This document shows, piece after piece, positions 10,332 through 39,161 of a DNA stretch of 40,427 nt (the stretch's first letter is position 1; each line of letters begins with the position of its first letter). The position numbers were made by a program, and so were the translations under genes. Under the pieces are notes generated by a model. That model was not told the origin of the DNA, ran no database searches, and saw only the letters and a list, made by a program, of their open reading frames with translations. Source of the stretch: a virus (lineage: Duplodnaviria > Heunggongvirae > Uroviricota > Caudoviricetes); the IMG/VR virus record IMGVR_UViG_2636416136_000013, positions 1 to 40,427 of that record; one strand, given 5' to 3'.

Positions 10332-11279
10332 ATGAGCAATACAGCAAAAATCTACGATTTCAGCGCCGCACACGAGCGCAGGAGCAACAGGATGGAGAAC
10401 CAGAAAACTGGTTACATTCCGTTGTACCGGAGCATTCTGAAACAGTCATGGGCGAAAGATGTTTATCTTCGCACCCTGTGGGAAAACCTTCTCCTGAATG
10501 CCGCCAGAAAGCCATACAAAGCGAATTTCAAAGGTCATGAATGGCATCTGCAACCCGGTCAACTGGTTGTGACAGCAGCTGATTTAGGTCTTCAGTTATG
10601 CGACAGGCATGGCAAGCCGGCAAGCCGTGATCAGGTTGAGCGGATGCTTCAGGTTTTTGTGAAAGAGGGGATGATCTCCATTGATGGGGAGAAGCAAAAA
10701 GGTCGTGTGATAACCATCACAAATTACCATGAATATGCTCAAAAAATGGACAATTCACCCGCACATGAAGCCGCACAAACAACCGCACATGAAGCCGCAC
10801 ATGATGAAGCCAGTAATGGCGCGGCTTTCAGCGCACATGCCGCACATGAAAGCGCACATGAAGCCACACAAACAACCGCACATCATGAACAAGAAGGTAT
10901 TAACAAGAATATAAATAATACCCCCCTACCCCCCAATGGGGGAGGCGATGGGCAGGTTAAACCTGAACGTCGCAAGGCAGAACGAATCGACTACGAATCC
11001 TTCCTGAACGCCTACAACACCGAAGTCGGTGACAGACTGCCACACGCTGTTGCGGTCAACGAGAAACGCAAACGCCGCCTGAAGAAAATCATCCCGCAAC
11101 TGAAAACGCCAAACGTGGACGGTTTCAGAGCGTATGTCAGGGCGTTTGTACATCAGGCCAAGCCGTTTTACTTCGGAGACAACGACACTGGCTGGACGGC
11201 AGATTTTGATTACCTGCTGAGGGAAGATTCGTTAACGGGAGTTCGGGAAGGGAAGTTTGCAGACAGGGGGATTGCATGA
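10332..11279 (+). CDS. O: Replication initiation protein (O-like; internal repeat-encoded linker)
   Basis: Located where lambdoid phages encode O / P22 gene 18; [10 protein letters not shown] start resembles lambda O; central region encodes repeated AHEA/TTAH units from DNA direct repeats; stop overlaps the helicase start (ATGA). Confidence 0.75.
10758..10899 (+). repeat. Iteron-like direct repeats inside the O-like gene (candidate replication origin) followed by an AT-rich stretch
   Basis: Multiple copies of CGCACATGAAGCC / GCACATG units within ~140 bp, then aacaagaatataaataata and a C-rich/G-rich inverted element; the same layout as ori-lambda inside O. Confidence 0.6.
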
Positions 11280-31147: not shown

Positions 31148-32563
31148 ATGGCTACGTGGCAACAGGGTATTAATTCTGGTGGTTTTCTGGCTGGCATCGG
31201 TACGCAAAATGAGAATGCGCCAAAGGCAAGCGACATTAACGCAACGCTTGGTCTGATCCGCGAAAACAATGAACTGGCTCGCTCAGGTGTAAATAACGTT
31301 GGCCTGACCGCGTTACGTGGTCTGGCTGGAGTTGCTGATATTTACAATCAGGAACAGCAACAGAAAGCTATTAGTGCGTTCAATAAGGTTCACGCTGATG
31401 CATGGGCTTCTGGTGATCCATCTGGACTATTTAAGTTTGCCCAGGAAAATCCAGCGTTTGTTGCGCAGGCACAACAGGCGTTTTCCGGTCTTAATGAGCA
31501 GCAACGCAACGATATGGGCGATTTAGCCATGAGGGCTAACGTCGCTCTTTCTCAGGGACCGGAAGCCTACAGTAAATTCATTACTGACAACAAGGACAGG
31601 TTAAATCGCGTTGGTGCTAATGCTGACTGGATGATTCAGACAGGTATCCAGAATCCAGAGCAGCTATCACACATGCTGACTACTATGTCTCTCGGTGCGC
31701 TTGGGCCAGAAAAGGCGTTTGCTGTTCAGGATAAGATGGCTGGTCGTGAAATTGACCGAGGCAGGCTGGCAGAGACAATCCGCAGCAATCAGGCTGGTGA
31801 AGCACTTCAGGCGAGAGGGCAAAACCTTTCCTATCAGTCAGCAATGACTGGGCACAATATCGCAGCACAACGCTTGGCTCTGGATCAGCAAGAGTTCGGG
31901 TTTAAGATGCAGCAAGCGCAGGAAAAGGCTCAGCAGTTGATTAGCGAAGCACCTAAGCTGTCAGTAAACATGGAAAAAGGCATCGAGACGGCTGTAAATA
32001 ATGCCACAGCATCATCAAACTCAGCCAATTCCATGAGTGCGCTTGCTCAACAGTTCAGAGCAGAAAAACCAACGACCGGTTTGTTCGGTAACGCACAGAA
32101 CATGTTCGCAAAACTTACCGGAAGCGATACGACATTGCGTGATTTGCGCATTCGCCAAAATGCCCTTGTTAACAGTCAGGTTCTTAAATTCCTACCTCCC
32201 GGCCCAGCAACGGATAAAGACGTTGAGATCGTTCGACAGGGTGCGCCAACTGACATGGATAACCCTGAGACGGTCGCAAGATGGCTTGATGCAATGGCAA
32301 ACCTTGAGCGACGAAATGCGCAGTTTAATGAGTTTAAAGCCGAGTGGATGAGCGCGAATGGCAACCCTGGACAATCGCGTAATGGCGGTCAGATATTGGG
32401 GTTGGATGTTAAAAAAGGTGAATCATTGGGGAGTGCCGTTAAGCGGTATATGTCAATGAATACTGACGCAGCGCCAGCACAAGATTCGACACCTTCAGGA
32501 GAACCACGGAATCAGGTTGGATCATATACCTCAAAATCAGGCATTCAATTTACGGTGGAATGA
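31148..32563 (+). CDS. Ejection/internal virion protein (P22 gp20-like)
   Basis: 471 aa; size and position match P22 gp20. Confidence 0.65.
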
Positions 32564-34791
32564 TGAAAGTAACTGCAAACGGTAAGACATTTACCTTTCC
32601 TGATGGTACGAGCACCGAAGATATTGGCACCGCCATTGATGAGTATTTTGCTGGTCAGGCTGTTCAGCAACAAACAGTTAATCAGGCCAATAATGCACCA
32701 ACACGGGAAGAACCATCATTGATGCAACAAGCTGGCGATTGGCTCACTGGTGGTCAAAGTGCAGGGCAAATTGTAGAACAGGCTGGTCGTGGTCTGGTAA
32801 ACATACCATTTGACGTATTGCAGGGTGGCGCAAGTCTGATTAATGCAATCAGCCAGGGGCTTGGTGGCCCCAAGGTTTTGGACGATGTCTATCGTCCAGT
32901 AGATCGACCGACAGACCCTTATGCGCAAGCTGGAGAGTCAATAGGCGGTTATCTTGTTCCTGGAGCAGGAGTAGCTGGAAACATGGTCATTGGTTCTCTC
33001 GCTGACGCGGCGAATCAACGGGGTGATTTTGCCGAAAATGCCGCTATTAATGCCGGACTTAACATTGCTACGCATGGCCTGATAAATGGCGTTACCCATG
33101 GTGTTCGTGGTGCATCAAATATAATTAGTGGCAATAAAACATCTGCACAGAGAGCGACCACTGCGCCAACAGAAACATCACCATTCTCCGGTGATGCCGC
33201 TGCAGCAACAAATCCTGCGGTTCATGCCGCAGAGGCAAGAGTAGCACAAGGTGTACCAATGACGCCTGCGACGAGGAACCCAGAGGAAGTCGTTCGCACA
33301 GTAGCAGCACAAAAAAGGCCAAATCTCGCTTCATCGCTTGATGAACTAGATATCAATCCTCAGGCTGAAGTTCTGGAGTCTGCTGAAAGGCTTAATGTTG
33401 ATTCATTACTCCCTTCACACTTTTCCGGTAACGAGCAATACAAGGCAGTTGAGCAAGCAATCAAGTCCCGTGCGGGTTCTGCTCTACAGGTGCAGGAAAA
33501 TGAAGCAATCAGGCAGCTAGCACAGGGCGCGGGGGAGATAATTGATCGCGTTTCCGGTGCAAAAGATGCTCTTGGTATGAGCGACAAGTTTATTGATACG
33601 GTCAATGGAAGAATGTCTGCGCTGATGAAACGAAGCGACCAGCTTTATCGCAATGTTGAAAAGGCGATGCCTGCAGGTGCAAAAATTGATGCGCCATCAA
33701 CAAGGTCAATGCTCAAACAGGTGGCAGAAGATCTTGGCGGGATGAAAAACCTTGACCCTATTGAAAAGAGAGTCTTTCGGGCAGTTAATCCAGGCAAGAA
33801 CGGCGCATTAACTTATGCAAATCTCAATAAGCAACGACGACTTGTTGGTGATGCACTTCATAAGAATTCTGGGCCATATAAAGATGCTGATCGCGCTGCT
33901 TTATCGAGGCTTTACGGTTCTCTCGCCGATGATCAAAAGGCGGCGCTGTCAGAGACAAATGCATTACGTGATTTTGAAGTTGCTCAGAGGCTTGTTCAGA
34001 TGCGAAAAAGCATGGAAGAGCAAATGATTAATCTAACTGGCAGAACGCTGAACGGTGATGTTTCTCGCAAAGCAACTACAGCACTACAGGCAATGTCGAA
34101 AGGCGATGCCAAAGGATTTCGTGAATTGATGCAAAACACGCCGTCCAGGAAGCTAAGAACCGAGCTACTGGGAACAGGTCTTCGGGATATGCTTTCGAAC
34201 GGAAAACGTGGCGCTGATTTTAATCCTGCAGGGTTTGCTGACTGGTATCAAAACATGTTAGCAAACGGGCAGATGCGCAATCTTGCCCGACATTTACCAA
34301 AAGAGACTATGTCAGGGCTGAACGATGTATATAAGGTCGCAAAGGCTATCAAAGACGCAAAATCTTACGAGATAACTACAGGAAGACTAAACGAGTTCGT
34401 CAAACGGTTTAATCGCGTCACTGCGGCAAATGAATTTGTTGCTAACCATGCCCAACGCATTGGCACTGCGGTTGGTTCAACTGTGTCAGGACCGTTCAGT
34501 GCAGTAGGTGCTGTTGCTGGGTCAGAAATTGGGGCAAAAGTCGCCAGCAAAATCAGGGCGATGGGCGGCGCTGAATCAATTGAATCTGCAGAAAAGCTAA
34601 TTAGCTCACCAGAATTCCAGAAAGCAGCAAGGCTGGCAGTAAAACAAGCACCAGAAAGCATCGTTGATACAACTGTAAGACGCTCTTCTGCTTGGCGCTC
34701 GTTTTACAACTCACTTCCAGAATCAGATAAGAAAACCATATCAAGGCTAGGCATCATGTACTGGATGAACAGTGATGATAACCAGAAGTAA
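32560..34791 (+). CDS. Ejection/DNA-transfer protein (P22 gp16-like)
   Basis: 743 aa; last gene of the ejection-protein trio before the accessory region. Confidence 0.6.
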
Positions 34792-34808
34792 CGGAAAGCC
34801 ACGGATGG

Positions 34809-35006
34809 TTAGTTGCAGTCTTTTTTATATAAATCTCTGAGCGTATCAAAGACAATTTTCTTTACCATATCGGATTGTTGGTCTGCAATACGCGATGCTA
34901 TTGGTAGCGATGAATTCAATCGCTTGTCGAGAGCTGGTATTGTCGCCTCGTTAAGCGGAATGGAGCGGGAGTAATTAGTAATCCACGGATGGATTCGTTT
35001 AGCCAT
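34809..35006 (-). CDS. Hypothetical protein (65 aa), distal gene of a small minus-strand operon
   Basis: ORF overlapping the stop of the upstream ~140-aa gene by 8 nt; no recognisable motifs. Confidence 0.45.
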   Translation of the reverse strand: MAKRIHPWITNYSRSIPLNEATIPALDKRLNSSLPIASRIADQQSDMVKKIVFDTLRDLYKKDCN

Positions 35007-35445
35007 CGGATAGGCGCTCTTTTGCCTCTTCGATTAAATCAGCACAAATAAGAGGTAGCTCTGATGAAACAACTTCCCAGCCAGATTTTTTAACAACTTC
35101 ATTTAACCACTCTTCTCGATCGTGAGTTCCTCTTCTTTTTTCTAGGAGGAATATTTGAGAGTAAATCTGAATGGCCTTCTCGTTTAGATAAAACGCATAT
35201 TGCCTGTTTAAAACAACATCTGCAAGTATATCAATGCCTTGTTGAGTTTTTGCCGCTACATCTGGCTCTACTCCCATACGAATAGATAAATCGCATAACT
35301 CAACGAATGCACGCTCTTCAGCGTCGTATTTCATTTTGTAAAAATGTGAAGCCAGTTTTTGTGTTTCGGCGAGTTCTGCCCTTAATTTTTTTATCTTGCT
35401 TCTCGTTAATATACCAAACACACCAACCTCCTTAGTTTTGAGCAT
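34999..35445 (-). CDS. Hypothetical cytoplasmic protein (~140-148 aa)
   Basis: ORF 34999..35445; an AAGGAGG Shine-Dalgarno lies just inside the annotated 5' end, so the true start is probably the GTG at plus 35419..35421. Confidence 0.55.
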   Translation of the reverse strand: MLKTKEVGVFGILTRSKIKKLRAELAETQKLASHFYKMKYDAEERAFVELCDLSIRMGVEPDVAAKTQQGIDILADVVLNRQYAFYLNEKAIQIYSQIFLLEKRRGTHDREEWLNEVVKKSGWEVVSSELPLICADLIEEAKERLSDG

Positions 35446-35474
35446 GACGAAATTAACCAGCCATCAGGATGGTA

Positions 35475-35657
35475 TTAGTCACATTCTATTTCTTTTGTCG
35501 AGGTCCATACATAAGGGTCTGAGCAAACAACCTCTCCATTTATCATGACGTCATAGCCCATTAGATATGAGTTACCACCAACAACCTGGGCGGCGATGAC
35601 GCTAATGCTGGCGGCGCAGGCTGCACCAAAAACGAAACCAATTAATATATTTTTCAT
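35475..35657 (-). CDS. Small secreted protein (60 aa) with signal peptide
   Basis: [25 protein letters not shown] resembles a signal peptide; the ~35-aa mature part contains two Cys. Confidence 0.45.
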
Positions 35658-35679
35658 TTTGATTCCAAATAGTTATAGG

Positions 35680-35874
35680 ATGAAAGTTACGACCATAGAA
35701 GAACGCCTGAACAACACTGAGTTAAACCAAACCCTGCTTGACCAGCGACTTTCAGATCTTGAACTTAAAGATCTTGATGCGCAAATATCAGAAGCAGAAG
35801 CCAAGCTCTCCAGCTTAAACCACCGCAAGAAGCAAATCCGCAACAGAATTACTCAGGGACGCGGAAGCTGTTGA
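35680..35874 (+). CDS. Possible small coiled-coil protein (64 aa)
   Basis: ORF frame 35596..35874 with internal ATG; heptad-like sequence; weak ribosome-binding context. Confidence 0.25.
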   Translation: MKVTTIEERLNNTELNQTLLDQRLSDLELKDLDAQISEAEAKLSSLNHRKKQIRNRITQGRGSC

Positions 35875-35895
35875 TGTAGGGCCACAATCCTATCG

Positions 35896-36285
35896 TTAAC
35901 ATTTTCTTTTTACTTTTCCAACAAAAGCTTTGGTTGAATCCATATTTCCATAACCGGAAATGGTTTTTGACATTAAAACTGTTCCAGTAGGATGTATTAC
36001 CCATGAGTCTATAACGCGTTGAGTTTCTCCATTCGCGCCAATTCCTAGGATGGAGTTTTTAGACAATGCTTTGTAAGCCATGCCACCCGCATCTGTCCCA
36101 GAATATGTGACGCTGGCATCTTCACCGCTTGTCTTAATGATGAATGTTCCACTAAAACCATCTTCTTCCGGTTGGAAATTATTTCGTTCTGAATAGTTTA
36201 TTCCGCGCATATCTCCAACGACCCAGCACTCCGCTGTAGCCCCAAAAGATATGAATAAGAACATAGCAGCAAGAAATTGCTTCAC
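35896..36285 (-). CDS. Secreted/periplasmic hypothetical protein (129 aa; GTG start)
   Basis: AAGGAGG Shine-Dalgarno 5 nt upstream of the GTG; signal-peptide-like N-terminus (M)KQFLAAMFLFISFGATAEC. Confidence 0.6.
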   Translation of the reverse strand: MKQFLAAMFLFISFGATAECWVVGDMRGINYSERNNFQPEEDGFSGTFIIKTSGEDASVTYSGTDAGGMAYKALSKNSILGIGANGETQRVIDSWVIHPTGTVLMSKTISGYGNMDSTKAFVGKVKRKC

Positions 36286-36402
36286 GCCAACCTCCTTAGT
36301 TTTGAGCAGGATACCATGAAAAAAGTAAACATCTTTTGTCTACTTCACATTTGAATGGTTTGTCATTAGGATGTTTCCGGTTTTTTAAATATGGAAATTG
36401 TT

Positions 36403-36822
36403 ATGAAGAGGATTATTGGCGTCGTTGCTGGCGCTATATTGTTATCTGGGTGCGCAACTATTGTTGGTGACGAAACGCAGCTTGTGCAAGTGAACAGCAA
36501 TCCCTCCGGTGCGAGCTTTAAGGTAAAAGACGAATCAGGCGTGATTGTTGCGCAAGGTAAGACCCCGCAAGGAGTAACTCTTGCCAAGTCAGATGGTAGT
36601 TATTTTGGCAAAAAGAGCTACCAGATCACTATGGAAAAGGATGGGTACGAACCAGTTACCCTGCCAATCAAAGCCAATGCTAATGGCTGGTATATTGGTG
36701 GAAACCTTGTGTTTGGTGGGTTAATTGGTTGGCTTGCTGTAGATCCTTTTAATGGTGGGATGTATACCTTGAAGCCAAAAGAGGCAAACGCATCTCTTAT
36801 ACCATCAACAAAGCAAGACTAA
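36403..36822 (+). CDS. Lipoprotein (PEGA-like fold suspected)
   Basis: Lipobox MKRIIGVVAGAILLSGC; mature part has KDGYEP and a Gly/Trp-rich C-terminus; followed by two tandem terminators. Confidence 0.65.
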   Translation: MKRIIGVVAGAILLSGCATIVGDETQLVQVNSNPSGASFKVKDESGVIVAQGKTPQGVTLAKSDGSYFGKKSYQITMEKDGYEPVTLPIKANANGWYIGGNLVFGGLIGWLAVDPFNGGMYTLKPKEANASLIPSTKQD

Positions 36823-36986: not shown

Positions 36987-39161
36987 ATGACAGACATTAC
37001 AGCCAATGTGATCGTATCGATGCCTTCGCAACTCTTCACTATGGCTCGTTCTTTTAAAGCTGTAGCCAATGGCAAAATTTATATCGGTAAAATTGACACT
37101 GACCCGGTAAATCCTGAAAACCAAATTCAGGTTTATGTGGAGAACGAAGACGGCTCTCACATTCCCGTTTCGCAACCAATAATTATTAACGCTGCTGGCT
37201 ACCCTGTATATAACGGACAGATTGCCAAATTCGTAACCGTGCAAGGCCATTCTATGGCTGTTTATGATGCGTATGGTACACAGCAGTTCTATTTTCCGAA
37301 TGTGCTGAAGTATGACCCGGATCAGTTTAAATTACTTATTGGCGGTACAGATGGTAGTAAATATATCGGTTTCGGCGCTTCAACTGTTTACGATGCAATC
37401 AGGAAAACACCTCAATACTATGGAGCTAAAGCAGATGGATTGACATCAGATTCTGATGCCATTAATGCCGCAGCATTAGCTGCTTTTAATAATGGTGGCG
37501 GGGAAATATTTTACCCTCCAGGTGTTTATTTAATAGATTCTCCTATCATTCTTTATACAGGCGTTCATCATAAAGGCTCTGGAAAGAGAGCAACATTTCT
37601 GTATGTTAAAAAAGGTAGTAATACAGATGTATTTAAAACACATGGCTTTGGCGTTGTGGATAATCTGTCTGATGCGCCATATGGTTTTAGCATAAAAGAT
37701 ATGACCATTGATGGTAATTATCTTGACTTGCAAAGAGATACAAACTCATGGAGAACTTGCGACACTGTTAACAATGACTATGGAACTGCCATTAAAATAT
37801 TCGGCAGCATGTACCACATTGATGTTGAGATTAATAATGTTGCAGAACATGCTCTCTATTCAGAGGGGTATGGATCATTTCATGATAATCAGGAACACGC
37901 CTCTGAAGTGAGGATAACGGGAAGAATTTCAGGGAGAGAGGGGGTTGTGTTCAGGGGGCCAGGTGATATTAACCTAGATTATATTGTTTTTGGCCTGTGT
38001 GGACTTCCTCCTTACAGCACAAGATTAACAGCAACAAGCCAACAAAGCCTTCTTTATCCCGGAGAACCATGTCATGGAATTGTTCTTGATAATCAGTCTC
38101 CTTATACAGGACATGTCGATATAAATTACATCCATGTATATGCTGCGTATTATGGCTATGGATTTAAGACGCTGGGTGTTAACCGATTCAATGCGAGGCA
38201 TGTGTGTGTTGATAATAGTTTAGGTGGTTACTGGTTTACCAACGGGGCACATGGTGTTGTTGCCATCGCAGAAGCCAGGGCGTGCGGAAGAATGCCAGAT
38301 AACTACACTGGCGATTCAATTTCTCCTCTCCGCGACATGCTTCTGGATAACGGTACAATCTGGACACTTAACATCAATATAAAAGCACAAAGATATTCAC
38401 CTTCAATTGATGATGATGGGTATCAGATAGCTATATCAGGCAACAACAATGTAGTTACAATAAACCAAATTGGTCAGTTACAGAGTGACAATGCCCCTAT
38501 TAAAGCCTCGCTTCTTTCTGTTACTGGTGACAATAACAATGTTACTTTTACATCCAAGAGGATAAAAGGAAATTTATGTTACTTATCCGGCGGTGGTAAT
38601 AATATAAGAGGTTCGTGTGATAATTTGTTTTCGGGTTCTGCTCTTATTCGCGATGCAGTAAATTCAACAACAATTTGTTTTGCGAACAGCGTAGATATAA
38701 CTGCGAAGGGGCTTTCTTCTGATTGTACTGGATTTAACAGCATTGGCACATGTGCATCAGAGAATATAAGATTAATCACTTCAGGCGCAAATGGTTATAA
38801 TAGGTTTTTAGGTGATAGAATGGCAGCCCTTAACAGGACGTGTACGTGGACGATTATGGCAACAGTTGGAAACTCAATAAATGGGAAATCAACTGACGAT
38901 TATATTGAGTGGAATATGCCAAACCCAACAGGTAGCGAATCTAACGAGGTTGATATTGAGCATAATTTTCTGTATGCCCCAACACCAAACCAGATTGCTG
39001 TGTTGGGGTTTAGACAACCTGCTGGTTCTGCAGAAGGTGCAACTTTAAGTCCAATAGAAATTATCGGAACTCCAAGTGAGTCTTCTTTCAGAATTAGATA
39101 CCATTGGTCAGGCACTTTATCTTCTGGCTCTGCTCCAATTGTAATGTTCAGGATTAGATAG
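36987..39161 (+). CDS. Tailspike protein (P22 gp9-type head-binding N-terminus, divergent beta-helix receptor domain)
   Basis: N-terminal ~115 aa [58 protein letters not shown]...NVLKYDPDQ matches the P22/HK620 tailspike head-binding domain; the rest is different and has a pectate-lyase-like start [18 protein letters not shown]. Confidence 0.85.

Follow-up and report, generated by a model that had tools for sequence, protein, structure and literature searches.

A conserved 34-nt start signal of the sieA slot in P22-like phages probably doubles as a joint between reassorting gene modules

In the DNA of a virus of the class Caudoviricetes (IMG/VR record IMGVR_UViG_2636416136_000013, positions 1 to 40,427; this whole stretch of 40,427 nt is referred to here as the window), the same short sequence, comprising a ribosome-binding site and a GTG start codon, stands at the head of two unrelated small genes. 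The question raised by this locus is what such a shared initiation region represents, and how it came to be present twice. The explanation that we consider probable, a grading that applies to it as a whole, is that the repeat is the conserved start signal, or "expression head", of the sieA slot of P22-like phages (Lederbergvirus), and that this 34-nt island doubles as a short-homology joint between modules. The window resembles P22 and stems from a phage or prophage of E. coli whose near relatives include CUS-3 and Kapi1. Both copies of the element lie on the minus strand, between homologues of the ejection-protein gene 16 (743 aa, 32560-34791, plus strand) and of the tailspike gene (gene 9; 36987-39161, plus strand), and read towards gene 16. 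The two copies and the genes that they head are located as follows.

36283..36316, minus strand: copy A, the full 34-nt island TGGTATCCTGCTCAAAACTAAGGAGGTTGGCGTG, delimited by its sequence, the exact repeat and the limits of the conservation profile
35419..35447, minus strand: copy B, the right-hand 26-29 nt of the island only, TGCTCAAAACTAAGGAGGTTGGTGTG, delimited by sequence and the exact repeat
35896..36285, minus strand: slot gene D1, an open reading frame (ORF) of 129 aa with a GTG start and a signal peptide, assigned to the function-unknown family phrog_2651
34999..35421, minus strand: slot gene D8, an ORF of 140 aa counted from its GTG, with neither a signal peptide nor a transmembrane segment

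The shared core, TGCTCAAAACTAAGGAGGTTGG, occurs at exactly two sites, both on the minus strand, at 36287-36308 in copy A and 35423-35444 in copy B; no third site was found across the window with up to 3 mismatches allowed, and two matches were reached in none of 100 dinucleotide-preserving shuffles. In a repeat search the two sites, which lie 864 nt apart, could be lengthened to 29 nt by accepting 2 mismatches. In each copy TGCTCAAAACTAAGGAGGTTGG is followed by one further nucleotide and GTG (minus strand, 36283-36285 in copy A and 35419-35421 in copy B), such that AAGGAGG is separated from the start codon by a 5-nt spacer, TTGGC or TTGGT. The full island of copy A consists, in order, of a TGnTATCCT box resembling an extended -10 element, an A-rich leader, a 9-nt Shine-Dalgarno sequence TAAGGAGGT, the 5-nt spacer (counted from AAGGAGG) and the GTG; copy B lacks the TGGTATCC box. 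The sequence TAAGGAGG and the T that follows it form a perfect 9-nt complement of the 3' end of 16S rRNA, and in the window TAAGGAGG is found in both copies and at one antisense site within the tailspike gene, with no other site in a sense context. The original prediction, that one 22-bp sequence and a GTG precede both a 140-aa and a 129-aa gene, is borne out by the exact search and the shuffles, as are, by the sequence itself, the GTG placed 5 nt after AAGGAGG in both cases and, by BLASTP between the two products (E = 15), the unrelatedness of the genes; its sites were right, but its coordinates were shifted by 1-2 nt.

The limits of the element emerge from its occurrence elsewhere. Three exact-pattern scans of IMG/VR, together with the window, yielded at least 202 instances, from prophages that constitute redundant samples of related strains. 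Around the 20-nt anchor, the positions that formed no part of the search (-10 to -1 and +20 to +23) are 84-100% conserved among 83 distinct instances, and at least 92% conserved save for the variable base before the GTG, while identity immediately outside falls to about 50%. The island is thus 34 nt long and sharply bounded, with the consensus TGGTATCCTGC-NN-AAAACTAAGGAGGTTGG-N-GTG (also written TGGTATCCTGCNNAAAACTAAGGAGGTTGGNGTG), the two internal NN positions of which vary freely. Its partners are diverse: among the matches listed, at least 16 protein clusters (at 40% identity) lie downstream and at least 18 sequence clusters upstream, and since one cluster on each side stems from two unrelated low-GC contigs, these correspond to about 15 families and about 17 upstream forms. 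A search of related prophages, which had been suggested as a check, accordingly finds the same sequence and GTG heading about 15 unrelated protein families. Among those downstream are P22 SieA (164 aa), hkcB-like proteins, orf62 of phage L and the two genes of the window; most are small membrane or secreted proteins, and most carry an N-terminal signal peptide or transmembrane segment. The upstream neighbours are divergent in some contexts (hkcC, a lipoprotein gene, a 343-aa ORF that matches in size and position the P63C-domain gene in locus L001, and an ORF that is DUF4065/Panacea-like by its sequence) and co-directional in others (an Arc/Mnt-like repressor, a helix-turn-helix protein and a 60-aa secreted protein). 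In loci L003 (Kapi1), L014, L052, L060 and L153 the island spacer contains a 7-nt tandem duplication (GGTTGGT GGTTGGT GTG or AGGTTGG AGGTTGG TGTG), which lengthens the distance from the Shine-Dalgarno sequence to the start codon.

The identity of the element is apparent from annotated phages. Searched with blastn against phage records, the 34-nt consensus matched 73 of them, including P22, with which it shares 33 of 34 positions. Copy A agrees with P22 13828-13861 (TGGTATCCTGCACAAAACTAAGGAGGTTGGTGTG) at 32/34 positions, and the right-hand part present in copy B at 25/26. In P22 the island begins on the final base of the annotated sieA promoter and closes with the GTG annotated as the start of that gene; HK620 has it immediately before hkcB, and epsilon34 before gene 14. 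It was also found in 507 of 5426 complete E. coli genomes. All instances are located between gene 16 and the tailspike gene, with the exception of the two low-GC contigs (judged unrelated on sequence only) and one chance genome match. The latter came from a search of representative genomes of 185,579 species, in which one pattern had no match and the other a single one, at L206 2082-2102 (a metagenome-assembled genome of Spirosomataceae). As a phage element this was rejected, being a chance coding match inside an ORF that reads ...QKTKEVGVRKVLGAS, which we take to be a permease-like motif.

This distribution disposes of the suspicion that the repeat arose by chance and would be absent from related phages, as the element is widespread in P22-like phages. 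The suggestion that the two genes share a portable ribosome-binding module fares less simply: the module is indeed shared and heads unrelated genes, but it is not portable, being a resident recombination joint at a single locus. Likewise, an element travelling around the genome with its genes is at odds with its residence at one place, the sieA position of P22. At that position the P22 gene is functional and expressed: sieA with 85 bp of upstream sequence confers full exclusion from a single chromosomal copy (PMC10883804, which also describes the start codon of the gene as uncertain), and carrier cells as well as lysogens express a sieA-yfp fusion (PMC4697819).

The manner in which the flanks of the island are combined argues for its second role. 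Among the matches listed, the adjusted mutual information (AMI) is 0.148 between upstream and downstream type (an 18 x 16 table) and 0.034 between upstream type and gene-16 type, and it reaches 0.547 between the downstream gene and the C-terminal type of gene 16. The low values are robust, because redundant sampling would inflate associations, not hide them. All four combinations of the commonest upstream and downstream types exist, and one gene-16 type carries at least seven different slot genes. The upstream and downstream flanks thus reassort almost independently, which marks the island as a recombination joint. In agreement with this, megablast comparisons with phages and E. coli place breakpoints at both copies (window positions 35413/35428 and 36283-36332). 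For most families the GTG is the last shared element; three MKRW families also have the next 4-5 codons in common, and in some cases homology already ends after AAGGAG, the incoming gene contributing its own spacer and an ATG. On the upstream side homology ends at -10, -2 or +3. Because the junction points vary between families, they are best ascribed to general recombination filtered by selection and not to a site-specific reaction. For recombinases of the lambda Red type 30-50 bp of homology suffice, as exploited in recombineering, so that an island of 34 bp approximates the shortest useful homology. Erf- or RecT-type single-strand-annealing recombinases, or RecA, could use an island of about this length, and co-infecting or co-resident phages could then exchange the DNA that flanks it; among the features annotated for the Kapi1 match is a RecT-family recombinase.

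Why the window contains two copies can be addressed from the composition of the region, in which the following features serve as landmarks.

36391..36822, plus strand: lipoprotein gene, 143 aa, phrog_6823, divergent from copy A and diagnostic of the epsilon34-type upstream context
35892..35899, minus strand: junction J, where an 8-nt microhomology, TTAACGAT, takes in the stop codon of the 129-aa gene; located by three-way alignment
35596..35874, plus strand: XhlA-like ORF on the late strand, 92 aa, phrog_7586 (match over residues 33-92), part of the Kapi1-type module
35475..35657, minus strand: gene for a 60-aa secreted protein, phrog_37095, part of the Kapi1-type module (Kapi1_060), directly upstream of copy B
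35457..35472, minus strand: imperfect hairpin CCATCCTGATGGCTGG, with TTAATTT after it, in the gap that separates the 60-aa gene from copy B
34885..34971, plus strand: gene-16 remnant, the last 29 codons of a foreign G2-type gene, by homology to loci L061 and L092
34821..34898, minus strand: 3' remnant of an mnt repressor gene, C-terminal domain only, by Pfam PF11423 (Repressor_Mnt) and blastn to P22 mnt

By blastn the region resolves into four blocks of different types: 36400-35892 is of epsilon34/L004 type (lipoprotein gene, island, 129-aa gene), 35902-35421 of Kapi1 type (XhlA-like ORF, 60-aa gene, hairpin, right-hand part of the island), 35447-34885 of L061 type (island, 140-aa gene, final 29 codons of a foreign gene 16), and 34877-34821 represents an mnt gene at its 3' end. 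The first two are joined at the TTAACGAT microhomology, and many E. coli matches begin at window position 35892; the Kapi1-type and L061-type blocks overlap only inside copy B. Copy B is therefore a crossover point, with a Kapi1-type parent upstream and an L061-type parent downstream. Judged from these alignments, the two copies belong to two slot cassettes of different parents that have been stacked, in an order that runs from copy A and the 129-aa gene through the 8-nt junction and the Kapi1-type module to copy B, the 140-aa gene and the foreign gene-16 stub. The same stack is present in E. coli M172-1, and a different one, with two full islands, in locus L184; in both, homology to the window is unbroken across the junction at 35892-35899. 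At least 80% of the segment between copy B and copy A is covered in 12/5426 E. coli genomes. Stacking is rare but recurrent.

A more local history, in which a target-site-like duplication surrounds an 864-bp insert or a ribosome-binding site was recently copied, would be compatible with the arrangement of the pair as direct repeats around a discrete segment with three small ORFs, but is scarcely credible in view of the evidence from other genomes. The context of copy A is single-copy in epsilon34 and in 46 fetched loci, and that of copy B in Kapi1 and 5 loci; the copies are unequal in extent (34 versus 26-29 nt), homology between them does not run beyond the element, and neither a transposase nor terminal inverted repeats lie between them. 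Moreover, most of the segment consists of the Kapi1-type module (35421-35902), which at one end is bounded by the TTAACGAT junction and not by the repeat. Local duplication is largely excluded because the copies arrived with different modules and copy B is itself a two-parent crossover; a target-site duplication or miniature inverted-repeat transposable element was rejected on the same mosaic map and the single-copy contexts elsewhere.

As a start signal of the sieA slot, the island would be retained because it carries the signals of whichever gene occupies the slot, namely a short A-rich leader, the Shine-Dalgarno sequence, the GTG and, at its left edge, part of a core promoter. The slot gene, which reads towards gene 16, would be expressed from the prophage, and a maximal Shine-Dalgarno sequence at optimal spacing would compensate for the weak GTG start. 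Candidates for the -10 element are the internal TGnTATCCT box, which has the extended -10 form, and an abutting T(A/T)TCAT hexamer, which corresponds to the -10 of PsieA as annotated in the P22 record. Reading these motifs as a promoter component of the island has, in our estimation, no better than an even chance of being correct. In the window, a minus-strand scan near both copies called neither a consensus promoter nor a terminator; all that the sequence shows there are -10-like boxes and some short hairpins. Copy B is without the left box, and the stretch that separates the two copies contains no called terminator; transcription of the 140-aa gene therefore probably begins at copy A, while its translation would rely on the identical ribosome-binding site directly in front of it.

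Several observations weigh against this account. Upstream of copy A, scanning for consensus promoters revealed no sigma-70 site on the minus strand, and, on reading the sequences, none of the three -10 candidates is accompanied by a consistent -35 across the upstream contexts. A search of the published literature found no mapped transcription start, transcript or protein for the element in any phage, so that the promoter part is one that we infer. In some contexts the left half is retained although a co-directional gene terminates only 26-40 nt upstream, an arrangement in which the slot gene would hardly need a promoter of its own. Owing to the redundant sampling of related strains, the IMG/VR counts do not represent independent events. 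Most cassette borders fall exactly at the start codon and near the stop codon, a precision for which random recombination alone is insufficient and which calls for selection or another mechanism. Finally, the late-strand sequence of the left half is AGGATACC(AG)ATG, a ribosome-binding site with an ATG, and conservation of the island may partly serve, or descend from, the other strand.

The last point can be developed into an explanation in which the left half is conserved as the ribosome-binding site and ATG of a late-strand gene (hkcC in P22 and HK620) and the right half for the slot gene. Every upstream context that keeps the left half shows that late-strand reading; in HK620 the ATG is the annotated start of hkcC (L117 1136-1501), the epsilon34-type context still encodes its first six codons, MKKVNI, and the left half is missing from copy B, which has a co-directional gene upstream. 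We nevertheless regard this division of the island as doubtful, as a real ORF (121 aa) follows in only 1 of about 12 contexts, the others having 12-47 unrelated codons and retaining the left half all the same; it is, besides, compatible with a start signal of the sieA slot, and would account for no more than one third of the island. In the window itself, where the left half read on the plus strand lies at 36303-36316, all that remains is a 12-codon ORF, MKKVNIFCLLHI, the first six codons of which are those of hkcC.

The island might instead be a target, an operator or RNA site bound by a protein or a small RNA that co-regulates the slot gene. Near-invariance over 34 nt exceeds what most ribosome-binding sites need, sieA expression is known to differ between carrier cells and established lysogens (PMC4697819), and late transcription, to judge from gene order, runs antisense across the island. 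Against this, the island has no dyad symmetry, its fold is not significant (z = +0.10 for the island alone and, with flanks, -1.84 for copy A and +0.82 for copy B), and it has no Rfam match, the two sub-threshold hits between 34500 and 37200 lying elsewhere and being due to chance. As its most variable positions (NN) are in the middle, and copy B and several other loci retain the right-hand 20-26 nt only, a regulatory target of this kind appears unlikely.

The precision of the cassette borders raises the further prospect of an integron-like system, in which a site-specific enzyme would exchange cassettes between the island and a right-hand motif, CCATCC(A/G)TGG. This motif is present twice in the window.

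34983..34992, minus strand: right-border motif CCATCCGTGG, 6 nt past the stop codon of the 140-aa gene
34799-34808, minus strand: second copy of the right-border motif, adjoining the stop codon of the real gene 16

Seen between the stop codons of slot genes and gene 16, the CC.TCC.TGG motif is in its own right a candidate for a small hairpin or a right cassette border. For site-specific exchange speak the near ORF-exact borders at both ends, with the GTG inside the island and the stop codon abutting CC.TCC.TGG or 3-6 nt away from it in many families, the invariance of the CC.TCC.TGG core in 24 distinct right borders that span several types of slot gene and of gene 16, and the occurrence of tandem cassette stacking. 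These features are outweighed by the variation of junction points from family to family on both sides of the island, by the want of an inverted repeat within it, and by the presence of even a relaxed right-motif pattern in only 95/179 loci. The hairpin of the motif is weak (73% of cells pair, but covariation is limited to one pair and the controls by shuffling and sliding are unconvincing), in none of the contexts inspected does a candidate recombinase gene accompany the slot, and the stack junction in the window is an 8-nt microhomology unlike either motif. An integron-like mechanism is accordingly very unlikely.

Distinctly unlikely, too, is a broader proposal, that the slot is a purpose-built, two-ended exchange site (the 34-nt head and CC.TCC.TGG) whose cassettes block or modulate DNA injection and are matched to the allele of gp16, with the island maintained for evolvability or for a dedicated enzyme and the linkage of slot gene to gene 16 being functional. 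Escape mutations from SieA in P22 map to gp16 and gp20, and for this reason a matching between slot gene and gp16 is plausible. The linkage could be functional or could reflect mere adjacency.

Returning to the conserved start signal and the genes behind it, both slot genes of the window are judged real by comparative criteria, namely constant length and an excess of third-position variation. D1 has 48 homologues, all of 129 aa, with variation of 8/12/25 by codon position and invariant Cys20 and Cys129. In its AlphaFold2 model the mature part is all-beta (predicted local distance difference test, pLDDT, 84), and its best PDB matches, to the NHBA C-domain, TbpB and calycin barrels, are weak (E about 5e-3, TM about 0.5). 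D8 is represented by only 3 near-identical clusters among 5.8 billion proteins, with variation of 11/3/19 by codon position; its model is helical (pLDDT 71) and found no match in fold databases, nor has D8 a match in Pfam, PHROG, PADLOC or NCBIfam. For the function of either gene, searches of Pfam, PHROGs, PADLOC, NCBIfam and PDB sequences returned nothing informative, and comparison with a large protein database returned close relatives only. Position alone suggests that they may act in superinfection exclusion or lysogenic conversion. D8 would be 148 aa long if begun at the in-frame ATG 35443-35445, but the GTG is supported over that ATG (which the original prediction had placed at 35445 as a possible alternative), since the family also occurs behind contexts that lack it; the Prokaryotic Genome Annotation Pipeline (PGAP) annotates the 140-aa form in E. 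coli M172-1. Gene callers are inconsistent in the starts that they assign to slot genes (examples are P0001-P0003 and L001 2697-3065): some ORFs run back through the island and acquire N-termini reading ...SGILLKTKEVGV, and PGAP begins the 129-aa homologue at a later ATG, giving 122 aa.

The GC content of the slot region is 0.39-0.42, against 0.46-0.50 for gene 16, as is typical of morons. The XhlA-like ORF, whose homologue is named "hemolysin XhlA family protein" by PGAP, is antisense to the stretch between the 129-aa and 60-aa genes. The hairpin at 35457..35472, the stem of which is perfect (CCAGCC/GGCTGG) at this site in most related loci, is at best a weak terminator, and the terminator scan did not call one there. 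A 65-aa ORF at 34809-35006 that matches PF11423 Repressor_Mnt (E = 1.3e-12, residues 37-61) is a chimera of the mnt remnant and the antisense of the gene-16 remnant and probably no real gene. On the plus strand, the promoter scan places a sigma-70-like site for the lipoprotein gene at 36344-36372. Far from the slot, at window 10760-10883, are five overlapping 31-nt direct repeats made up of CGCACATGAAGCC/CGCACAAACAACC units at 12-nt spacing, presumably akin to the iteron array of the lambdoid replication origin inside the O gene.

For annotation, the practical consequence is that genes behind the island in P22-like prophages should begin at the GTG located 5 nt past AAGGAGG. For gene discovery, the island is a 34-nt handle on the repertoire of genes at the sieA position, which are candidates for exclusion or lysogenic conversion and among whose approximately 15 families only SieA has been studied. 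In terms of phage evolution, a functional initiation region near the minimal length usable by recombinases joins modules that reassort freely, while the slot gene stays coupled to the neighbouring ejection-protein gene. The general picture of phage mosaicism is unchanged by these findings; the locus is an ordinary instance of it, a moron slot with a conserved joint, and an unusually clean example.

Compared with the region upstream of sieA in P22 and of hkcB in HK620, the window agrees in sequence, in its position between gene 16 and the tailspike gene, in an orientation convergent with gene 16, and in placing the element immediately before a GTG-initiated gene, which in P22 is expressed from the prophage. 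It differs in that the element heads 129-aa and 140-aa genes and not sieA or hkcB, in having two copies, and in that copy B lacks the part that in P22 abuts the annotated promoter; the -10 of the P22 record (TTTCAT) falls immediately beyond the island, where most other contexts have different sequence. The region as a whole has been described as the "ant moron" or immI region, in rapid flux (PMC2629481; PMC8022706), with ten types of ant moron among sixteen genomes and none of the region in Sf6 (PMC2629481, Villafane et al. 2008). Like such morons, the window has a variable block of lower GC content within the late operon, the genes of which would, by analogy, be independently expressed. Published accounts of the ant moron describe this variability, and sieA, hkcB and orf62 are likewise on record, but not a fixed 34-nt head or its role as an exchange point; in the literature covered, outside which lies Clark et al. 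2001 (HK620), we found no statement that one 34-nt initiation region heads these genes or acts in that way.

Closer in concept are the linker or boundary sequences of lambdoid phages, as in the modular theory of Susskind and Botstein and the "bsq" annotations of CUS-3, which like the island are short and conserved and have flanks that reassort. The CUS-3 record annotates boundary sequences elsewhere within the same region, beside ant and the tailspike gene; these measure 100-480 bp, whereas the island is far shorter and coincides with a translation-initiation region. The attI/attC arrays of integrons resemble the slot in combining a resident expression signal with exchangeable small promoterless ORFs of unrelated families, occasionally stacked. 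Unlike integrons, the slot has no integrase and no attC-like inverted repeat, and its crossover points are variable; on the other hand, the island supplies a ribosome-binding site and a start codon to the genes that it receives, which integrons do not.

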